The notes below the pieces were generated by a model. It was not told where the DNA came from. It saw nothing but the letters and a program-made list of their open reading frames with translations, and ran no database searches. 64,000 bases of DNA from an uncultured Candidatus Saccharibacteria bacterium (lineage in GTDB: Bacteria; Patescibacteriota; Saccharimonadia; Saccharimonadales; CAZDBS01), in assembly GCA_964503775.1 (NCBI GenBank), contig CAZDBS010000001.1, forward strand, positions 9,621-73,620, written 5' to 3'. Both the position numbers and the translations under genes were made by a program. Each line of letters opens with the position of its first letter. The first letter of the stretch is position 1. Below, in pieces: positions 1,029 through 10,437 of this stretch.

Positions 1029-1691
1029 TTAGATCCTCACCTTTACGAACTTAAAAGTAAACAATCGACGATTTTGATCCCAGGCACCAGAGCAGGTTTG
1101 GACAACTAGTTTTGGCGCTCCGACTTCTTGGAGAACATCAACATCAGTTGGTTTCACGTCATGGGCACCGGTGAAGACGTAGTAGAAAACTGCACCGGTA
1201 TTGGTACGAATCATGACTAGTTCACCGCCCCGCAGGTTATACAATTTACTAAAGACAGCTCGAGTATTGTGTCCATAGATAAAAGTCGTTCCCTCTCGAT
1301 TATTGGCCAGTGCCGTAACCGTAGCGTAGTAAGCCGAGGAGGGACCCAGCGTCCAGCTCTTGTTGACTTCATTGTAGTAGCCCTCAGATATCGGAACGCT
1401 CATATTGAGAGAGGAGATAATGATTTCAACCGGTTTACCACTGACAAATTTGGTTACCGGCACGTCCGCTGCAGCTGTCTTAACAGAAGCAGAGGGTCTA
1501 GCAGTCGAAGTCTCGGCCACCACTTGCTTGTCAGCAGCCTCTATTACCTCTGTTGGTACTACTATCGGTGCTTCAGCGGCACCCTCCGGCCTTACAAACA
1601 AAATCGTGGCTACAATAGCAGCCACGATCGACACGATCCCCAAAGTCATGTGAACTGCCGTGAAGGTAAGTTCTGACCTTGGTGAGCGCAT
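1029..1691 (-). CDS. Sortase family transpeptidase (N-terminal membrane anchor)
   Basis: Catalytic-triad context: H in FIYGHNTR, C in LVVQTCSG (TLxTC-like), R in QNRRLFTF. TM segment LGIVSIVAAIVATILFV. I chose the ATG at 1691 (M30 of the track ORF) because it lies 16 nt after the stop of the upstream LPNTG gene. Confidence 0.7.
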   Translation of the reverse strand: MRSPRSELTFTAVHMTLGIVSIVAAIVATILFVRPEGAAEAPIVVPTEVIEAADKQVVAETSTARPSASVKTAAADVPVTKFVSGKPVEIIISSLNMSVPISEGYYNEVNKSWTLGPSSAYYATVTALANNREGTTFIYGHNTRAVFSKLYNLRGGELVMIRTNTGAVFYYVFTGAHDVKPTDVDVLQEVGAPKLVVQTCSGAWDQNRRLFTFKFVKVRI

Positions 1692-1707
1692 AACGTCTAT
1701 TCCCCGC

Positions 1708-1890
1708 TTATTTAGTGCGAAGAGAATGACGGTAGAGGGCGACACCGAGCTGTAATACAACAGCTGTGACACCAACAACGATTGCTACAACAGCGATCGT
1801 GCTGAGAATCGTGCGACTCCCTGTGTTTGGTAATACTGCGATTCCTGCAGCGGTTGATGTACCGCCTAGGACAACACCTCGTCCGTACAT
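1708..1890 (-). CDS. 60-aa minimal LPXTG (LPNTG) sorting-signal protein
   Basis: Reads MYGRGVVLGGTSTAAGIAV-LPNTG-hydrophobic stretch-YRHSLRTK. An AAGGAG RBS lies about 7 nt upstream of the ATG and an AT-rich promoter-like region lies further upstream. It sits immediately upstream of the sortase. Confidence 0.55.
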   Translation of the reverse strand: MYGRGVVLGGTSTAAGIAVLPNTGSRTILSTIAVVAIVVGVTAVVLQLGVALYRHSLRTK

Positions 1891-2092
1891 ACGTCTCTCC
1901 TTTGAATCATTAGATTTATAGATGTACGAGCGAATATTACCCTATATATGCGTATTTGTAAAGAGTATTTTATTACATGCTTATGCTTACCAAACAGCTT
2001 ATCTTTATAATACTCTTGTAATTTGCACCATATTCTTGTAAAATCAGCATCAAATTGAAAAATTTAACTGATGTTAAGGAGCAGTGTAGATT

Positions 2093-3538
2093 ATGAAGAA
2101 ACTTAAATTCAAAGGTTTTCGTCTAGCGTTGGCTGGCTTACTACTTTTGGGAAGCATAGTCTCAAGCGTGCCAAAAGCCACCGCAGCAACACTAACACCA
2201 ACCGCTCAGGTTTCGTTTACTTTTGACGATGCCTTAGCGAGCACCTACACAAAAGCAGCACCTACACTTGCTAAATACGGTCAAACCGGAACAGTTTATG
2301 TCACGACCGGTTGTGTTGGCAGTGTCGGCACATGCCCAGCGGACCCTCAATCAACATATATGACTTGGGACCAGGTCAGCGCCCTGAAAACAACTTACAA
2401 CTGGGAAATCGGTGCACACACCGTGTCTCACCCTCAACTCGCTACTGATGGCTTGACGACAGCCCAGATTGTCAGCGAACTGAGTGATAGTAAAAATGAT
2501 CTGACCGCCCATGGTTTCAATGCGCAGGCCTTCGCCAGCCCATACGGGGATTACAACCCAACAGGTAACCCAGTTCTAGCCGAGATAGCCAAGCTCTACA
2601 GTTCACACCGTGGTTTTGCCGATACTGGTTACAACTCCTTCCCAAACAATGACTATCTACTGAGAGATCAACAGGTTCAGGCCGGAGTTACTGTAGCAAC
2701 AGTCAAAGGTTATATCGACCAAGCTATCGCCAGTAAGACATGGTTGGTTCTCACCTTCCATGATATTCAAGATACGCCGAACACCGACCCCGAGGAGTAC
2801 GAATATGCTACTGCGGATCTCGACGCTATTGCCGCCTATGTCAAAAGCAAAAATCTACGAGTGGTCAATGTTAGCGACGGTTTGGCAACGAGTGCAACTA
2901 ACATGCTAACCAACTCATCTTTCGACAACGGCTTAGCTGATGGTTGGACAACCGACAATGCCACGAGCGTCAAACTCAACACTGCCAACAACGGCAGCTA
3001 CCCAAGTCCCAAAAACTCGATTGAGTTAAACTCATCCACAACCAACGTTCATTTATTCTCCCCAACCGTTGATGTCGATTCTGCCCAAACCTACGTTGTT
3101 AAAAGTTTTCTCAATGTTCTCAAGCACGCTAGTGGTGAAGTCGCGTATTACGTGGACGAATATGATCTGAACGGAGTGTGGTTACAAACTCAGTATAAGA
3201 AAAGTGAGCCTACGGCTTTCGTCGAGACTATCAATTTCGAATACAAGCCTACCTCAGCAACTGTCAAAAAAGCTCGCGTACAGGTTGTAGTGACGGCTAA
3301 CTCTGGCATCCAAGCCTTTGTAGACAATTTCCAGATGTTCTCCGAATCAGGTACAACTCCTCCTGTAGCCCAGACACCAGGCGATGTAAATGGTGATAAG
3401 ATCGTGAACGCCCTCGATCTCAGTATCCTGCTGACCAACTGGTCTAAGACAGCTACCCGTGCCCAGGGTGATCTCAGTGGTGATGGTGTAGCAAACGCCC
3501 TCGATCTGTCGATATTACTAACGAACTGGAGTAAATAA
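2093..3538 (+). CDS. Secreted polysaccharide deacetylase (CE4/NodB domain) with CBM-like middle region and C-terminal dockerin repeats
   Basis: Signal peptide MKKLKFKGFRLALAGLLLLGSIVSSVPKATA. NodB motifs FTFDDA and HTVSHPQL. Two dockerin Ca-binding repeats, GDVNGDKIVNALDLSILLTNWSK and GDLSGDGVANALDLSILLTNWSK. GGAG RBS before the ATG. Confidence 0.8.
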   Translation: MKKLKFKGFRLALAGLLLLGSIVSSVPKATAATLTPTAQVSFTFDDALASTYTKAAPTLAKYGQTGTVYVTTGCVGSVGTCPADPQSTYMTWDQVSALKTTYNWEIGAHTVSHPQLATDGLTTAQIVSELSDSKNDLTAHGFNAQAFASPYGDYNPTGNPVLAEIAKLYSSHRGFADTGYNSFPNNDYLLRDQQVQAGVTVATVKGYIDQAIASKTWLVLTFHDIQDTPNTDPEEYEYATADLDAIAAYVKSKNLRVVNVSDGLATSATNMLTNSSFDNGLADGWTTDNATSVKLNTANNGSYPSPKNSIELNSSTTNVHLFSPTVDVDSAQTYVVKSFLNVLKHASGEVAYYVDEYDLNGVWLQTQYKKSEPTAFVETINFEYKPTSATVKKARVQVVVTANSGIQAFVDNFQMFSESGTTPPVAQTPGDVNGDKIVNALDLSILLTNWSKTATRAQGDLSGDGVANALDLSILLTNWSK

Positions 3539-3540
3539 TT

Positions 3541-4461
3541 ATGAATCGAATCAAATCTATCAGCCTTAGCCTTGCACTCGCTGCGGCGACAGTTTTCGGA
3601 TATATGCCCACAAATGTCCAAGCCCTTGGTGCTGCCAGTTTATCTCTAACTGGAGCGGGTTCTCACCAAGTCAACAGCACATTCTCAGTCTCTGTCTACG
3701 AGAACAGTGGTGCCGATATGGTAAACGTTGTCCAGAGCGATATCGCATATGACGTTTCCAAATTGCAGTTCGTCAGTATCGACGCCAGCGGTAGCGCTTT
3801 TGGTATCGACGCCTACTCTGCTAACACCGGCAATGTCGTAACGATTACACGAGGCGTATCTGGTGGTGCGACCGTCACAGGTAGTAAGTTAGTAGCTTCT
3901 GTCATCTTTAAAGCTTTGGCCGGCAGTGGCTCTACAAGTATCAGCTTCCAACCAAGCTCGAAAATTTATCGATCAACCGATAACACTGACATATGGAACC
4001 AAGTCACGACAGGTGCCTCGTATAGTTTCACCACCCCAGCTCCGACACCAACTCCTACGCCAACCCCGACCCCAACACCAAAGCCTGCCACTACACCAAA
4101 AGTTACCATGCAGTCTACACCCAGCACAGTAGCTTCTACTCCGACTCCAACTCCTACAAACACCCTAGGTGCTACGGAGCAACCGAAAGCAGAAACGACC
4201 ACCACATCTACAACAGATTCAGAATATCACCCTGCTCAGGTAACCAATACCAGCAACGGAACCAAAGTCTGGGGCTTCATGGCCGCATTTGCCGCTATTG
4301 CACTCGGTATCCTGGCAGTAAAACGGAACTTCGTACCAGCTAAATCAGCAGCCGTGGTCTACACTGCGCCAGAAGCTAAGGTCACAAAATCAAAATCTAG
4401 CGCTACCAAGAAGAAAACAGCCAGCAAGTCCACGACTGCTAAAAAGACTAAAAAGTCATAA
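3541..4461 (+). CDS. Membrane-anchored cohesin-domain protein with Pro/Thr linker and Lys-rich cytoplasmic tail
   Basis: Signal peptide, then a cohesin-like block (STFSVSVYENSGADMVNVVQSDIAYDVSKLQFVSIDASG...KLVASVIFKAL). This is followed by a (PTPT)n linker, the TM segment VWGFMAAFAAIALGILAV and a K/S/T-rich tail. It starts 3 nt after the dockerin protein stop. Confidence 0.7.
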   Translation: MNRIKSISLSLALAAATVFGYMPTNVQALGAASLSLTGAGSHQVNSTFSVSVYENSGADMVNVVQSDIAYDVSKLQFVSIDASGSAFGIDAYSANTGNVVTITRGVSGGATVTGSKLVASVIFKALAGSGSTSISFQPSSKIYRSTDNTDIWNQVTTGASYSFTTPAPTPTPTPTPTPTPKPATTPKVTMQSTPSTVASTPTPTPTNTLGATEQPKAETTTTSTTDSEYHPAQVTNTSNGTKVWGFMAAFAAIALGILAVKRNFVPAKSAAVVYTAPEAKVTKSKSSATKKKTASKSTTAKKTKKS

Positions 4462-4545: not shown

Positions 4546-4620
4546 GCGGGTGTCGTACAACGGCTAGTATATGAGTTTTCCAAACTCAGGACGAGGGTTC
4601 GATTCCCTCCACCCGCACCA
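4546..4620 (+). tRNA. tRNA-Gly(UCC), CCA encoded
   Basis: Manual cloverleaf: acceptor gcgggtg/cacccgc, anticodon stem tgagt/actca, loop tt-TCC-aa, T-arm gaggg-ttcgatt-ccctc. Confidence 0.9.
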
Positions 4621-4621
4621 T

Positions 4622-4698
4622 GCCCTCGTAGCTCAGTTGGATAGAGCAGGAGACTTCTAAGCTCAAGGTCGCAGGTTCGATCCCTGCCGAGGGTACCA
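4622..4698 (+). tRNA. tRNA-Arg(UCU), CCA encoded
   Basis: Acceptor gccctcg/cgagggt (G1-U72), D-arm gctc-agttggata-gagc, anticodon loop ct-TCT-aa, T-arm gcagg-ttcgatc-cctgc. The anticodon stem ggaga/gctca has mismatches at both ends. Confidence 0.8.
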
Positions 4699-4780: not shown

Positions 4781-5203
4781 ATGAACAGCGATGATCAAGG
4801 CAAGAAACCATATGTGGTCAATATCGAGGACCTGACGAAAGCCAATACAAACTTCCGTACTGCCCAGTGGACTGGTCAATATTTTCAGATGACTCTCATG
4901 TCTATACCGGTAGGCGGAGAAGTCGGGTTAGAGGTCCACCCTGACACTGATCAGTTCTTGCGACTCGAGCAAGGTAAGGCCAAGGTGCTCATGGGACTAT
5001 CCCAGGATAACTTGGATCAAACATTTGAAGCTGAAGATGATTTTGCAATCTTCGTTCCTGCTGGCACATGGCACAACATCATCAATGATGGCGACGAAGA
5101 TCTGAAATTGTATTCCATCTACGCCCCGCCACACCACCCGTTCGGCACCGTTCACGCGACATACGCCGACGCCCAAGCTGCCGAAACGGCCGAAGAGCAC
5201 TAA
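4781..5203 (+). CDS. Cupin-domain protein
   Basis: Small beta-barrel signature, GGEVGLEVHPDTDQF...FVPAGTWHNIIN (two cupin motifs). GGAGAG RBS upstream. Confidence 0.7.
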   Translation: MNSDDQGKKPYVVNIEDLTKANTNFRTAQWTGQYFQMTLMSIPVGGEVGLEVHPDTDQFLRLEQGKAKVLMGLSQDNLDQTFEAEDDFAIFVPAGTWHNIINDGDEDLKLYSIYAPPHHPFGTVHATYADAQAAETAEEH

Positions 5204-5258
5204 GATTCGGGTCTGATTGCTTTATCCACTGAGTTCAAGTATAATCACCCCCGTTAAT

Positions 5259-5336
5259 GGCGGGCGTAGCTCAGTTGGTTAGAGCGCCAGTTTGTGGTAC
5301 TGGATGTCGTGGGTTCGACCCCCATCGCTCGCCCCA
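5259..5336 (+). tRNA. tRNA-His(GUG) with genomically encoded G-1 and CCA
   Basis: Extra 5' G opposite discriminator C73. Acceptor gcgggcg/cgctcgc, anticodon stem ccagt/actgg, loop tt-GTG-gt, T-arm gtggg-ttcgacc-cccat. Confidence 0.9.
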
Positions 5337-5343
5337 CACAAGG

Positions 5344-5367
5344 ACCCGGGCTTTGTCCGGGTTTTTG
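5344..5367 (+). terminator. Rho-independent terminator after tRNA-His
   Basis: acccgg / ccgggt stem with loop gctttgt, followed by ttttt. Confidence 0.7.
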
Positions 5368-5390
5368 TGTGGACAAATGATGGATGTCCG

Positions 5391-5506
5391 AACCCAGAAC
5401 CACGAAGTGTTGGGTGCGTGTAGCGACTGGCGCGCGCAGAAGTTTATATCGAGCATGATAGGAACGGAAATAGGGAGCGAAGCGACCGTCTTCCCATCGC
5501 TCCCCC
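5391..5506 (+). repeat. Degenerate tRNA-His 3'-half copy interrupted in the T-loop by a ~60-nt conserved insert (copy C of a 3-member family)
   Basis: tggatgtc (identical to the tRNA-His variable region) ... gttgggtgcg | tgtagcga..gcgcgcaga..atcgagcatg..ggagcgaag | cgacc..cccatcgctcccc (matches the tRNA-His 3' end cccatcgctcgcccc). The core is shared with 37096-37185 and 56549-56636. Confidence 0.6.
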
Positions 5507-5536
5507 TAAATTAACAAGGTTTGGTTTTCATTATCA

Positions 5537-6745
5537 CTATCGGACATATTCCAAATACTTATCCATGTCCCATGGCCCAAGACCACACCCCACTGATGTG
5601 TTCTTTGCTAATCGAAGTGTCACTGAGTTCACTAGCTGTATAAGAATACTTATCTTGCTATTCGGTGATCCAGTGCCACTATCAACCTCATAACAGTAGG
5701 TCTTGTCGTCTCTTACTAAACTAAAGTCGAGATTAATTGCGCCCTTTGTAGTGGGATCAAAGCTATAAATACTACTCGTTATCATACCTAGCTGTTGTGC
5801 CATATTGCCGATCGAGATAACACCTCTGGTCGAATCATAATTACTGTGCACGAGCGCCAATGACCCACCCACGTCCCAGAGCCCCGATGGGTCTGAATCC
5901 TTACTCATCCATATTCCCTGGACAGTATTCGGCACATCCTGGTATATCGTGCCACACGGCAGTACCTTAGACTGTCTTAGCATACCCCCAAAATCACCAA
6001 TTTTAGCGTACAGCTGCTTTGATACGTCGCTTGAATAATAATCCAATGTACATACGTAGTGACGCTCGCTGTCAGGCCATCGTTTCAGGTTTGCCAATAC
6101 CGGGTTGGGTATCCTCTTATCGATAAGTGCAAAATCCAGCCCATCCGGGTAACCTCGTTCACCACCCGCCCAACCCAATACCTCTCCGGCTTTTAATTTC
6201 ACCTCCACTTCCTTGTAATCATTGTGCGACCTCTTGGCTTTGCCAACATCACTTTCTTGGGTGCGATCATATGGCGGTTGCATAGCTGCAGCTAGGGCAT
6301 CATTGAGTTTTTGAACCAGTATAAAATACCCAGTTACATCTTTGCATATTTTAAAATCGATACGATAGGCTTCATACGGCTTATCCAAGTCGTTGTTATC
6401 CATTTTCATCATCTGTGTGACGGTCATGTCGGCCGGCACATAGAGTGTTGTTTTGTTTGGACCATTGTCAGTGTGGATATAGTTGTAATACATGTGAGTT
6501 GTCGGCAAGACATGTCCGGGCGGCGCGAGATTACCAAGAGGTACGATCGTACTGATCTCTTCTAATTTTACAGGCGGGTTTTGTAAAATCCTCTCCTTCG
6601 ATACACAATCCGATCCACTACTCGCCATATTGTGCTGTTTTTTGAATACAATCGCCCCGACTAAGGTGATTACTAAGATTACCAACCCTATCATGACAAT
6701 GTGAGCAAAGCCATGGTCGCTAACTCTGGAAGAAACCATAAGCAA
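5537..6745 (-). CDS. Secreted/membrane-anchored hypothetical protein, paralog of 61971-63218 (possible distant LytM/M23-like barrel)
   Basis: N-terminal module SDHGFAHIVMIGLVILVITLVGAIVF. Shared blocks with the 61971 ORF: PPGHVLPTTHMYY vs AGAHVTPIDHLYF, YRIDFKICKDVTGYFILVQKL vs YRFEIQHSCQTVSYFDLVTKL, KLKAGEVLGW vs AVKAGQEVGR. Confidence 0.5.
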   Translation of the reverse strand: MLMVSSRVSDHGFAHIVMIGLVILVITLVGAIVFKKQHNMASSGSDCVSKERILQNPPVKLEEISTIVPLGNLAPPGHVLPTTHMYYNYIHTDNGPNKTTLYVPADMTVTQMMKMDNNDLDKPYEAYRIDFKICKDVTGYFILVQKLNDALAAAMQPPYDRTQESDVGKAKRSHNDYKEVEVKLKAGEVLGWAGGERGYPDGLDFALIDKRIPNPVLANLKRWPDSERHYVCTLDYYSSDVSKQLYAKIGDFGGMLRQSKVLPCGTIYQDVPNTVQGIWMSKDSDPSGLWDVGGSLALVHSNYDSTRGVISIGNMAQQLGMITSSIYSFDPTTKGAINLDFSLVRDDKTYCYEVDSGTGSPNSKISILIQLVNSVTLRLAKNTSVGCGLGPWDMDKYLEYVR

Positions 6746-10232: not shown

Positions 10233-10309
10233 TGGTCGGGGTGGCGGGATTTGAACCCACGACCTCGTCGTCCCGAACGACGCGCGCTACCAAGCTGCGC
10301 TACACCCCG
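10233..10309 (-). tRNA. tRNA-Pro(CGG), CCA encoded
   Basis: The reverse complement starts cggggtg. Anticodon stem cgtcg (gtcgt)/acgac with loop tt-CGG-ga, T-arm gtggg-ttcaaat-cccgc. Confidence 0.9.
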
Positions 10310-10334
10310 TTGTCTTTATATGCCTATTACTGTA

Positions 10335-10356
10335 AAAACCCACGTATGTGGGTTTT
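10335..10356. terminator. Hairpin terminator between the two tRNA-Pro genes
   Basis: aaaaacccac-gtat-gtgggttttt. Confidence 0.6.
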
Positions 10357-10360
10357 TATT

Positions 10361-10437
10361 TGGTCGGGGTGAAAGGACTCGAACCTTCGACCTCCGCGTC
10401 CCAAACGCGGCGCGCTAGCCAACTGCGCCACACCCCG
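10361..10437 (-). tRNA. tRNA-Pro(UGG), CCA encoded
   Basis: The reverse complement is cggggtgtggcgcagttggctagcgcgccgcgtTTGGGacgcgg..., anticodon loop tt-TGG-ga, T-arm gaagg-ttcgagt-ccttt. Confidence 0.9.

Follow-up and report, generated by a model that had tools for sequence, protein, structure and literature searches.

A conserved family of passenger-less LPXTG mini-proteins encoded beside a sortase and a PgaC-like synthase in Saccharibacteria

Introduction

Sortases are generally viewed as the enzymes by which folded proteins, once exported, become attached to the cell wall. This role can intersect with glycan metabolism, as in Actinomyces oris, where the normal secreted protein GspA is reportedly glycosylated via an LCP enzyme and anchored by the class E sortase SrtA. 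Polymers made by synthase-dependent routes offer no lipid-pyrophosphate carrier for LCP ligases. Among small membrane proteins, the Pf3 coat protein enters the membrane with its N-terminus outside, in a YidC-type manner and with no signal peptide. Here we describe a locus in a 64,000-nucleotide stretch of DNA from an uncultured Candidatus Saccharibacteria bacterium (contig CAZDBS010000001.1; hereafter the window) in which a gene for a 60-residue protein with an LPXTG sorting signal, which we call the mini-LPXTG gene, is followed by the genes for a sortase and a membrane GT2 synthase.

Protein-sorting systems with links to polysaccharides have been described in other bacteria. The XrtG system of Firmicutes consists of a Firmicu-CTERM protein, the exosortase XrtG and two GT2 enzymes (PMC12854382), and PEP-CTERM/EpsH exopolysaccharide loci include PF01522 deacetylases (PMC1569441). 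The locus described below resembles these systems in some respects and departs from all of them in others. We give about even chances to the proposal that its 60-residue protein is a dedicated, highly expressed substrate of the adjacent sortase, which would transfer a short peptide to an amine of the envelope, most likely in peptidoglycan.

Results and discussion

A gene that encodes little more than a sorting signal

The mini-LPXTG, sortase and GT2 genes all lie on the minus strand of the window (Table 1). An earlier note on this DNA, made from the letters alone, had quoted 60 residues for the first of them and had recognized a tripartite sorting signal, and the open reading frame (ORF) encodes exactly those residues. 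There are 19 Gly/Ala/Ser/Thr/Val-rich residues ahead of the LPNTG motif (spanned by the stretch TAAGIAVLPNTGSRT), then a hydrophobic stretch and the basic tail YRHSLRTK. The lack of a canonical signal peptide, the strong ribosome-binding site (RBS) and the AT-rich, promoter-like upstream region that the note had also listed are likewise present. The candidate promoter was located by a consensus scan, which returned four sites in the region against 1.6 expected.

Table 1. Features of the mini-LPXTG locus and its neighbours, in window coordinates.
Feature	Position	Strand	Description
PgaC/IcaA-like membrane GT2, first 342 of 426 residues	1..1027	-	QRYRW; runs off the window edge
Sortase, 220 residues	1029..1691	-	N-terminal membrane helix; linker (about 50 residues, low confidence); catalytic barrel (His141, Cys200, Arg208)
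Terminator-like hairpin (12-bp stem, 4-nt loop; 1629..1602) and tract TTGTTTGT	1594..1629	-	64-106 nt after the mini-LPXTG stop, within the 5' part of the sortase gene that encodes its membrane anchor
Mini-LPXTG gene	1708..1890	-	60 residues, MYGRGVVLGGTSTAAGIAV-LPNTG-SRTILSTIAVVAIVVGVTAVVLQLGVAL-YRHSLRTK; stop codon 1708-1710
Codons for residues 25-60	1711..1818	-	Predicted membrane helix and basic cytoplasmic tail
LPNTG codons (residues 20-24)	1819..1833	-	Predicted sortase cleavage motif
Shine-Dalgarno sequence AAGGAG	1897..1902	-	6 nt 5' of the mini-LPXTG ATG
Promoter-like site TTTACA-17 nt-TAATAT	1934..1962	-	AT-rich spacer, common to the divergent deacetylase gene; consensus scan only
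Secreted CE4 polysaccharide deacetylase with C-terminal type I dockerin	2093..3538	+	Divergent; PF01522 (1e-15), PF00404 (1e-8)
Membrane-anchored cohesin protein	3541..4461	+	Signal peptide, cohesin domain, Pro/Thr linker, transmembrane helix, Lys-rich tail

Existing family libraries hold little that corresponds to this protein. Only TIGR01167, a generic LPXTG anchor model, matches it, and weakly (15.2 bits, with a cutoff of 15.9); the same model matches 33 of 65 relatives at E <= 0.1. A Pfam search returned no PF00746 match, no exosortase or CTERM model in NCBIfam matches, and neither Pfam nor NCBIfam has a dedicated family. In addition, neither such proteins nor this operon were described in the literature that we searched on Saccharibacteria/Patescibacteria sortases, short LPXTG proteins and signal-less LPXTG proteins. 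The mini-LPXTG/sortase/GT2 system is widespread in one phylum, as documented in the next section, and undescribed in the family libraries and literature searched, in agreement with the earlier note, which could not place the arrangement in a described family.

Within the 64-kb window, the mini-LPXTG gene is the sole ORF with a sorting signal. Approximately three other credible sorting-signal ORFs occur in 853 kb of related loci, all of which are sortase neighbourhoods.

A large family under purifying selection

By using the sortase as a query, we collected 80 species-level loci, all from Saccharibacteria, as neighbourhoods of approximately 12 kb. A mini-ORF lies just upstream of the sortase gene in 55 of these (56 including L082), and the sortase is adjacent in 72 of the 80. 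The combination of sortase, small LPXTG ORF and GT2, which the earlier note had singled out as worth seeking in related genomes, thus recurs in 56 of the 80 loci. This set contains 52 distinct mini-proteins of 51-68 residues, with 11-29 residues before the motif. Nearly all of the 55 loci have a GGAG-type RBS 5-9 nt ahead of a conserved ATG, and most of the proteins begin with 'MY'. One contig (L001) carries a mini-protein and a sortase identical to those of the window.

The family extends far beyond this collection. A profile search of 5.8 billion proteins recovered at least 535 clusters at 90% identity, and the top 120 are 55-64 residues long, bar two with extended called starts (78 and 91 residues), and carry names such as 'hypothetical' or generic 'LPXTG anchor' protein. 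When 1.84 billion representatives were searched exhaustively with HMMER, 261 matches were obtained (50%-identity clusters; E <= 1e-3), and among the best 150 of these 261 nearly all are 48-98 residues long. Divergent members that we checked one by one again have sortase, GT2 and CE4 deacetylase genes downstream of the mini gene. One protein (P0063) bears the source label 'Candidatus Limnocylindria bacterium' (Chloroflexota), which is probably a binning error; all other named members are from Saccharibacteria.

Comparison of 12 close pairs revealed 181 synonymous versus 64 non-synonymous codon differences, and changes are concentrated at the third codon position (212, compared with 50 at the first and 30 at the second). 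The mini-protein is under purifying selection on its amino-acid sequence. Furthermore, the stop-to-stop frames that contain the mini-ORFs span only 57-107 codons in all loci, and so the ORF is not a truncated long gene. We conclude that it is a real, conserved, protein-coding gene whose product is little more than a tripartite sorting signal.

Sister lineages have full-size substrates at the same position

Approximately 19 other loci in our collection have, at the position of the mini gene, an LPXTG protein of 175-430 residues with a normal signal peptide, a four-Cys, Asn/Thr/Ser/Gly-rich domain that has no Pfam match and an Ala/Thr/Pro linker. The next gene in these loci encodes a different GT2 (often about 390 residues) without QxxRW, or there is no GT2. 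Such arrangements were seen in L022, L024, L041, L046, L049, L065, L069, L070, L072, L078, L080, L083 and L088 (about 5200-5880), and further in L059, L062, L079 and L087. The large LPXTG protein, its sortase and the GT2 without QxxRW constitute a second uncharacterized pairing in Saccharibacteria.

The profile of the mini family aligns, nearly over its full length, to the last 55 or so residues of several large substrates (in L024, positions 4-57 with E = 2e-9). By this alignment, the linker and sorting signal of the large proteins are homologous to the mini-protein, which looks like such a segment that has lost its passenger and signal peptide. The tail type of the window protein (..LQ..V.LYR..) also resembles the tails of the large substrates. 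The mini form was probably derived by loss of the passenger and then maintained by selection, rather than being a product of decay.

These homologues bear on the proposal that the small ORF is what is left of a longer LPXTG gene in decay, or that it is an upstream ORF that does no more than regulate the operon by its translation. The earlier note had suggested that a long gene frameshifted in its 5' part would undo its interpretation, and it was right to the extent that longer homologues do exist at the same position in sister lineages. However, size, start and motif are kept in 56 loci and in 261 clusters at 50% identity, and the closed frames are accompanied by selection on the amino-acid sequence. 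A decayed pseudogene or frameshift remnant is ruled out by the closed frames, the conserved start and RBS and the purifying selection, and taken together the remnant and upstream-ORF proposals seem to us extremely improbable.

A terminator-like hairpin separates the mini gene from its enzymes

The sortase ATG follows the mini-LPXTG stop codon by 16 nt. The hairpin that forms within the first codons of the sortase gene has a predicted folding free energy of -20.4 kcal/mol (z = -3.84), and 0 of 200 shuffled sequences fold as well. In the closest relative (L009), where the intergenic gap is also short and the hairpin also falls in the first sortase codons, the stem is identical and the loop has changed. 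More generally, a hairpin and T-tract located 30-110 nt after the mini stop were found in 42 of 55 mini loci, versus 42 of 269 control windows (16%) searched with the same detector. Mini-sortase spacers bearing the hairpin are present in L010-L081. Because a terminator-like hairpin follows the mini gene, these data suggest that this gene is transcribed well in excess of the sortase and GT2 genes, and that its product is made in similar excess. By analogy, the pattern resembles those of major structural subunits and precursor peptides.

A different relationship is evident between the two enzymes. The GT2 ATG lies 1 nt after the sortase stop codon, as the earlier note had reported along with the QRYRW motif, and the GT2 RBS lies within the 3' end of the sortase gene. 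Judged by this arrangement, sortase and GT2 are a truly coupled pair. The proposal that all three genes are translationally coupled consequently holds for sortase and GT2 but not for the mini gene, which is set apart by the terminator-like hairpin in most loci.

Anatomy and predicted topology of the mini-protein

We compiled anatomy statistics for 256 family members. The L, P and T of the motif are invariant (256/256), N and G are each found in 88% of members, and LPNTG is present in full in 79%. The earlier note had held that its idea would fail if the small ORF or its motif were not conserved, and both proved to be conserved. The part before the motif comprises 10-32 residues (median 19) and is composed of 21% Gly, 16% Ala, 15% Val, 11% Thr and 7% Ser, with Tyr at residue 2 in 77% of the proteins and Lys in only 24%. 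AlphaFold models the window protein as a confident helix over residues 27-59 (pLDDT 85-92) with a flexible, low-confidence N-terminus.

The mean number of Lys and Arg residues is 0.36 before the helix versus 3.58 in the tail, and therefore, by the positive-inside rule, the protein is predicted to have its N-terminus outside and its C-terminus in the cytoplasm. The best 19-residue hydropathy of the C-terminal helix has a median of 2.47. In comparison, the N-terminal part is mildly hydrophobic (median best 15-residue hydropathy 1.31) and is shorter than 18 residues in 28% of members, often too short to span a membrane. By the length and hydropathy of this part, the mini-protein has no canonical signal peptide and no passenger domain. 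On the same grounds we rejected, as not general, the idea that the N-terminal stretch is an arm of a membrane hairpin or a cleaved signal peptide, although it may apply to the longer members.

The strongest conservation lies elsewhere. The helix and tail contain no indels, a mid-helix Gly (residue 40 in the window protein) is kept in 94% of members and an R..AKK tail recurs, while the N-terminal part varies in length. This distribution raises the question of whether function resides in the membrane fragment that would be left after cleavage (Gly, helix and basic tail), or in the uncleaved protein. Such a product could be a small synthase subunit or regulator comparable to IcaD or PgaD, or a membrane signal, and the sortase would be an enzyme of maturation or turnover. 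It is relevant that the annotation of the cluster includes no gene resembling those for IcaD or PgaD, and that a two-component kinase of Streptococcus gordonii senses remnant peptides of sorting signals (PMC11326707), which provides a parallel for a signalling role. However, the same helix and tail features are found in the large substrates of loci that lack a PgaC-like synthase, and so they are better viewed as features of the sorting signals used by this sortase clade. Moreover, the terminator after the mini gene argues for an excess of product rather than for 1:1 stoichiometry, and the composition of the N-terminal part and Tyr2 are conserved as well. We therefore regard a function in the membrane fragment or in the uncleaved protein as quite unlikely. 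The earlier note had offered a primer, an anchor, a tag or a regulator as possible roles, and a stoichiometric substrate fits the evidence better than a regulator does.

The sortase falls outside the curated classes

The enzyme encoded downstream, which the earlier note had called a sortase from its His/Cys/Arg context, matches PF04203 (E = 1e-15), and His141, Cys200 (in QTCSG) and Arg208 are invariant among 12 relatives. A longer version could start at a TTG at 1778, but the gene as annotated in L001 starts at the equivalent of the ATG at 1691. AlphaFold predicts a sortase fold with a core pLDDT above 85, and Foldseek matched it to many sortases with probability 1.0 and TM-scores of about 0.66-0.72 on the target. 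The best of these structural matches belong to classes E, C and A, all near E = 1e-8, and sequence matches to these classes in the PDB are likewise similar to one another. No NCBIfam cutoff for sortase classes A-F was reached. The best score was for class E, with 34 bits versus 160, and classes D, F and C all scored below it (class C, 14.8 bits versus 160). Sequence and model together identify the enzyme as a sortase that lies outside every curated class. The sortases of mini loci and those of large-substrate loci form mostly separate groups in a quick neighbour-joining tree.

Some evidence on the roles of such enzymes comes from transposon sequencing (Tn-seq) of Southlakia epibionticum (PMC10633639). 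Its 448-residue sortase SEML1_0327 is essential, and its 199-residue 'class E sortase' SEML1_0711 is dispensable, with disruption giving a growth advantage (PMC10633639). The latter gene is not beside a GT2 gene or an annotated mini gene. By analogy, this pair of enzymes fits the view that short sortases like that of the window are specialized. We also considered the exopolysaccharide genes SEML1_0081-0083 of Southlakia as a possible mini/sortase/GT2 operon, and rejected them as a Wzy/flippase-type cluster.

The properties of the enzyme and its substrate also speak to the possibility that the sortase works as a hydrolase and releases the N-terminal peptide in soluble form, for example as a signal or a surface-active peptide, or that the peptide is polymerized like a pilin. 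The gene order is like that of precursor-peptide operons, in which a small gene and a leaky terminator precede the genes for enzymes. However, the peptide is of low complexity and is variable in both sequence and length. Pilin-like polymerization was rejected, given that the infrequency of Lys in the N-terminal part leaves no conserved pilin-type nucleophile, that the DP[WFY] lid motif of class C was not found in the sortase sequence and that class C models all fail. We consider release or polymerization of the peptide highly improbable.

A PgaC-like synthase and polysaccharide-modifying neighbours

The window GT2 matches TIGR03937 with E = 2e-47. Its full-length counterpart in L001 aligns to the PgaC_IcaA model from end to end (positions 5-406 of 407) but scores 175 bits versus an equivalog cutoff of 422, and its matches to TIGR03111 (XrtG-associated) and to the XrtP-associated model reach 100 bits versus a cutoff of 364. 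By these scores the enzyme has PgaC architecture and is not a PgaC equivalog. A membrane GT2 gene adjoins the sortase gene in every mini locus where the contig allows, and in 49 of the 55 mini loci it is co-directional, with a product of about 425 residues that carries QxxRW. In other mini loci, the GT2 gene is convergent (L052, L055-57) or directly upstream of the sortase gene (L048, L073). In L048 (1789-3598, 4271-6462) and L073 (2810-4926), the mini gene, with LPSTG or LPSTS as its motif, is encoded on the other strand at a distance of about 1.5 kb. In L048, a further sortase of 308 residues is found beside a 284-residue secreted protein, so that two sortase systems are present in one genome.

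A gene for a CE4 deacetylase usually resides within a few kilobases of the mini, sortase and GT2 genes, and it is often joined by one for a GH10 hydrolase. The window deacetylase, which has weak matches to HfsH and PgaB, has a DAC_dock-type relative in six related loci, and a DAC2-type CE4 deacetylase is present in most loci. Next to the window deacetylase gene is that for a protein with an N-terminal cohesin domain (PF00963, E = 1.7e-6, 28.7 bits versus a cutoff of 24.1). The cohesin gene adjoins the dockerin deacetylase gene in L002, L009, L010, L042 and L063 as well, which defines a minimal cohesin-dockerin pair, and from its domains the cohesin protein is likely the surface tether of the dockerin-bearing deacetylase. 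The GH10 enzyme (PF00331, E = 3e-79; L002, 13530-15311) has an extra N-terminal region of about 270 residues and recurs at many loci. The polymer may be its cognate substrate, or it may form a xylan-degrading set with the CE4 enzymes. Small tRNA clusters near the locus (Gly-Arg 4546-4698, His 5260-5336 and Pro-Pro 10233-10437) look ordinary.

Given these neighbours, the sortase might have been recruited to polysaccharide biology, such that an abundant, ribosomally made and passenger-less peptide serves as an acyl donor to amines of a de-N-acetylated, synthase-dependent polymer, or as a covalent bridge between polymer and peptidoglycan. We judge this general idea to be unlikely. Its specific form, the main rival to transfer onto peptidoglycan, has the sortase ligate the peptide to free amines of the GT2 polymer after de-N-acetylation by the neighbouring CE4 enzymes, which would yield a polysaccharide decorated with peptides or a peptide that bridges polymer and wall. 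This strikes us as distinctly unlikely, although several observations point towards it. The mini gene, sortase, PgaC-like synthase and CE4 genes are neighbours in most loci, and L091 and L092 have all four in a single cluster read in one direction. Such a polymer could gain an amine nucleophile only by deacetylation, and the deacetylase of the window appears to be tethered to the surface through the cohesin-dockerin pair. In addition, two curated exosortase systems, those of XrtG and XrtP, have GT2 partners from this subfamily, and the XrtG operon has the matching order of sorting-signal protein, sorting enzyme and GT2s. Peptide ligation to amino sugars by Sortase A in vitro is among the results cited in a later article (Samantaray 2008, cited in PMC6414994).

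However, several considerations temper these arguments. No natural sortase that uses a sugar amine is known, and the product of the GT2 is left unassigned by the PgaC model. Xylan from the host or the environment could be the actual target of the GH10 and CE4 neighbours. Finally, the sister loci with large substrates keep the sortase beside a different GT2 without QxxRW, or beside none.

A proposed function for the mini-LPXTG system

Transfer of the peptide to peptidoglycan remains the proposal that we prefer. The gene, its conservation, the operon, the homology and the sortase fold are observed, and from them we infer the topology, the cleavage, the acceptor and the polymer. First, the mini-protein would insert without the help of a signal peptide, so that its short, nearly uncharged N-terminal tail faces outwards and its basic tail the cytoplasm, a topology like that of small YidC-type substrates. 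Given the intact motif and catalytic residues, the sortase should then cut LPNT|G to form an acyl-enzyme with a 23-residue Gly/Ala/Val/Thr-rich peptide, and would pass this peptide to an envelope amine, most likely on a peptidoglycan precursor as in canonical sorting. We speculate that the wall could become densely decorated with short neutral peptides alongside a poly-N-acetylglucosamine (PNAG)-like polymer made by the coupled GT2. This polymer might be modified by the neighbouring surface-tethered CE4 deacetylases, and the peptide may be a wall-side attachment or interaction point for it.

Several points weigh against this proposal. Our literature search found no described precedent for a sortase substrate that lacks both signal peptide and passenger. 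The C-terminal half of the mini-protein (helix and tail) is better conserved than its supposed cargo, and function could therefore lie in the membrane fragment. Likewise, the mildly hydrophobic N-terminal tail makes other topologies possible for the longer members. It is gene order alone that links the mini gene and sortase to the GT2 polymer. The cultured relative S. epibionticum has two sortases, and our census of LPXTG proteins was confined to the 64-kb window and to stretches of some 12 kb around sortase genes.

Significance

If our proposal is true, the peptide itself (or the membrane remnant) is the product of sorting, and the concept of what constitutes a sortase substrate would change. 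Here is a large, conserved family whose members consist of a sorting signal and a low-complexity tail of 10-32 residues, without a signal peptide, and which is apparently made in excess. Moreover, the tie between a sortase, a PgaC-like synthase and surface-tethered deacetylases mirrors the association of exosortases with exopolysaccharides, for which the mini system could serve as a simpler, testable model of the Gram-positive type. The system also concerns the cell surface of Saccharibacteria, which live as obligate epibionts and attach to their host bacteria through the envelope. If polymer amines were the acceptors, the system would represent a new way to fix synthase-dependent polymers to the cell, because these polymers have no lipid-pyrophosphate carrier on which LCP ligases could act. 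The envelope or adhesive layer of these epibiotic bacteria would then also contain peptide-glycan conjugates of a new class. A natural mini-substrate and a small sortase could also be of use in sortase-based ligation.

Comparison with known systems

The mini-proteins share with LPXTG sortase substrates (TIGR01167/PF00746) the LPXTG motif, the hydrophobic helix, the basic tail and an adjacent sortase with His, Cys and Arg. Unlike those substrates, they have neither signal peptide nor passenger, and only 10-32 residues precede the motif. They also differ from sortase-assembled pilins, in that the family has no conserved pilin-motif Lys and the sortase has no class C lid. The Pf3 coat protein is similar in its single helix, short and weakly charged N-terminal tail, basic C-terminal tail and lack of a signal peptide. 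However, there is no homology, and Pf3 is useful only as a model for insertion.

Two other comparisons involve glycans. The GspA/SrtA system of A. oris likewise has a glycan-linked sortase substrate, and the structures that best match the window enzyme include those of A. oris SrtA and other class E sortases, on par with classes C and A. Unlike that system, the mini/sortase/GT2 cluster has no LCP gene. The PNAG machineries IcaADBC and PgaABCD resemble the locus in having a GT2 of the same architecture with QxxRW, CE4 partners and a small membrane protein. However, the GT2 scores 175 versus 422 bits with their model, the small protein bears a sortase motif and has no relationship to IcaD or PgaD, the operon includes a sortase gene and GH10 is a frequent hydrolase neighbour.

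The exosortase systems come nearest. PEP-CTERM/EpsH loci also place PF01522 deacetylases near a sorting system (PMC1569441), and the XrtG system, with its sorting-signal protein, sorting transpeptidase and PgaC-like GT2, is the closest analogue in organization (PMC12854382). Unlike these systems, the mini locus encodes a single-pass sortase rather than a multi-pass exosortase, its signal is of the LPXTG type and its GT2 scores far below the family cutoffs. The resemblance to XrtG and PEP-CTERM/EpsH is thus best described as one of analogy rather than of membership.

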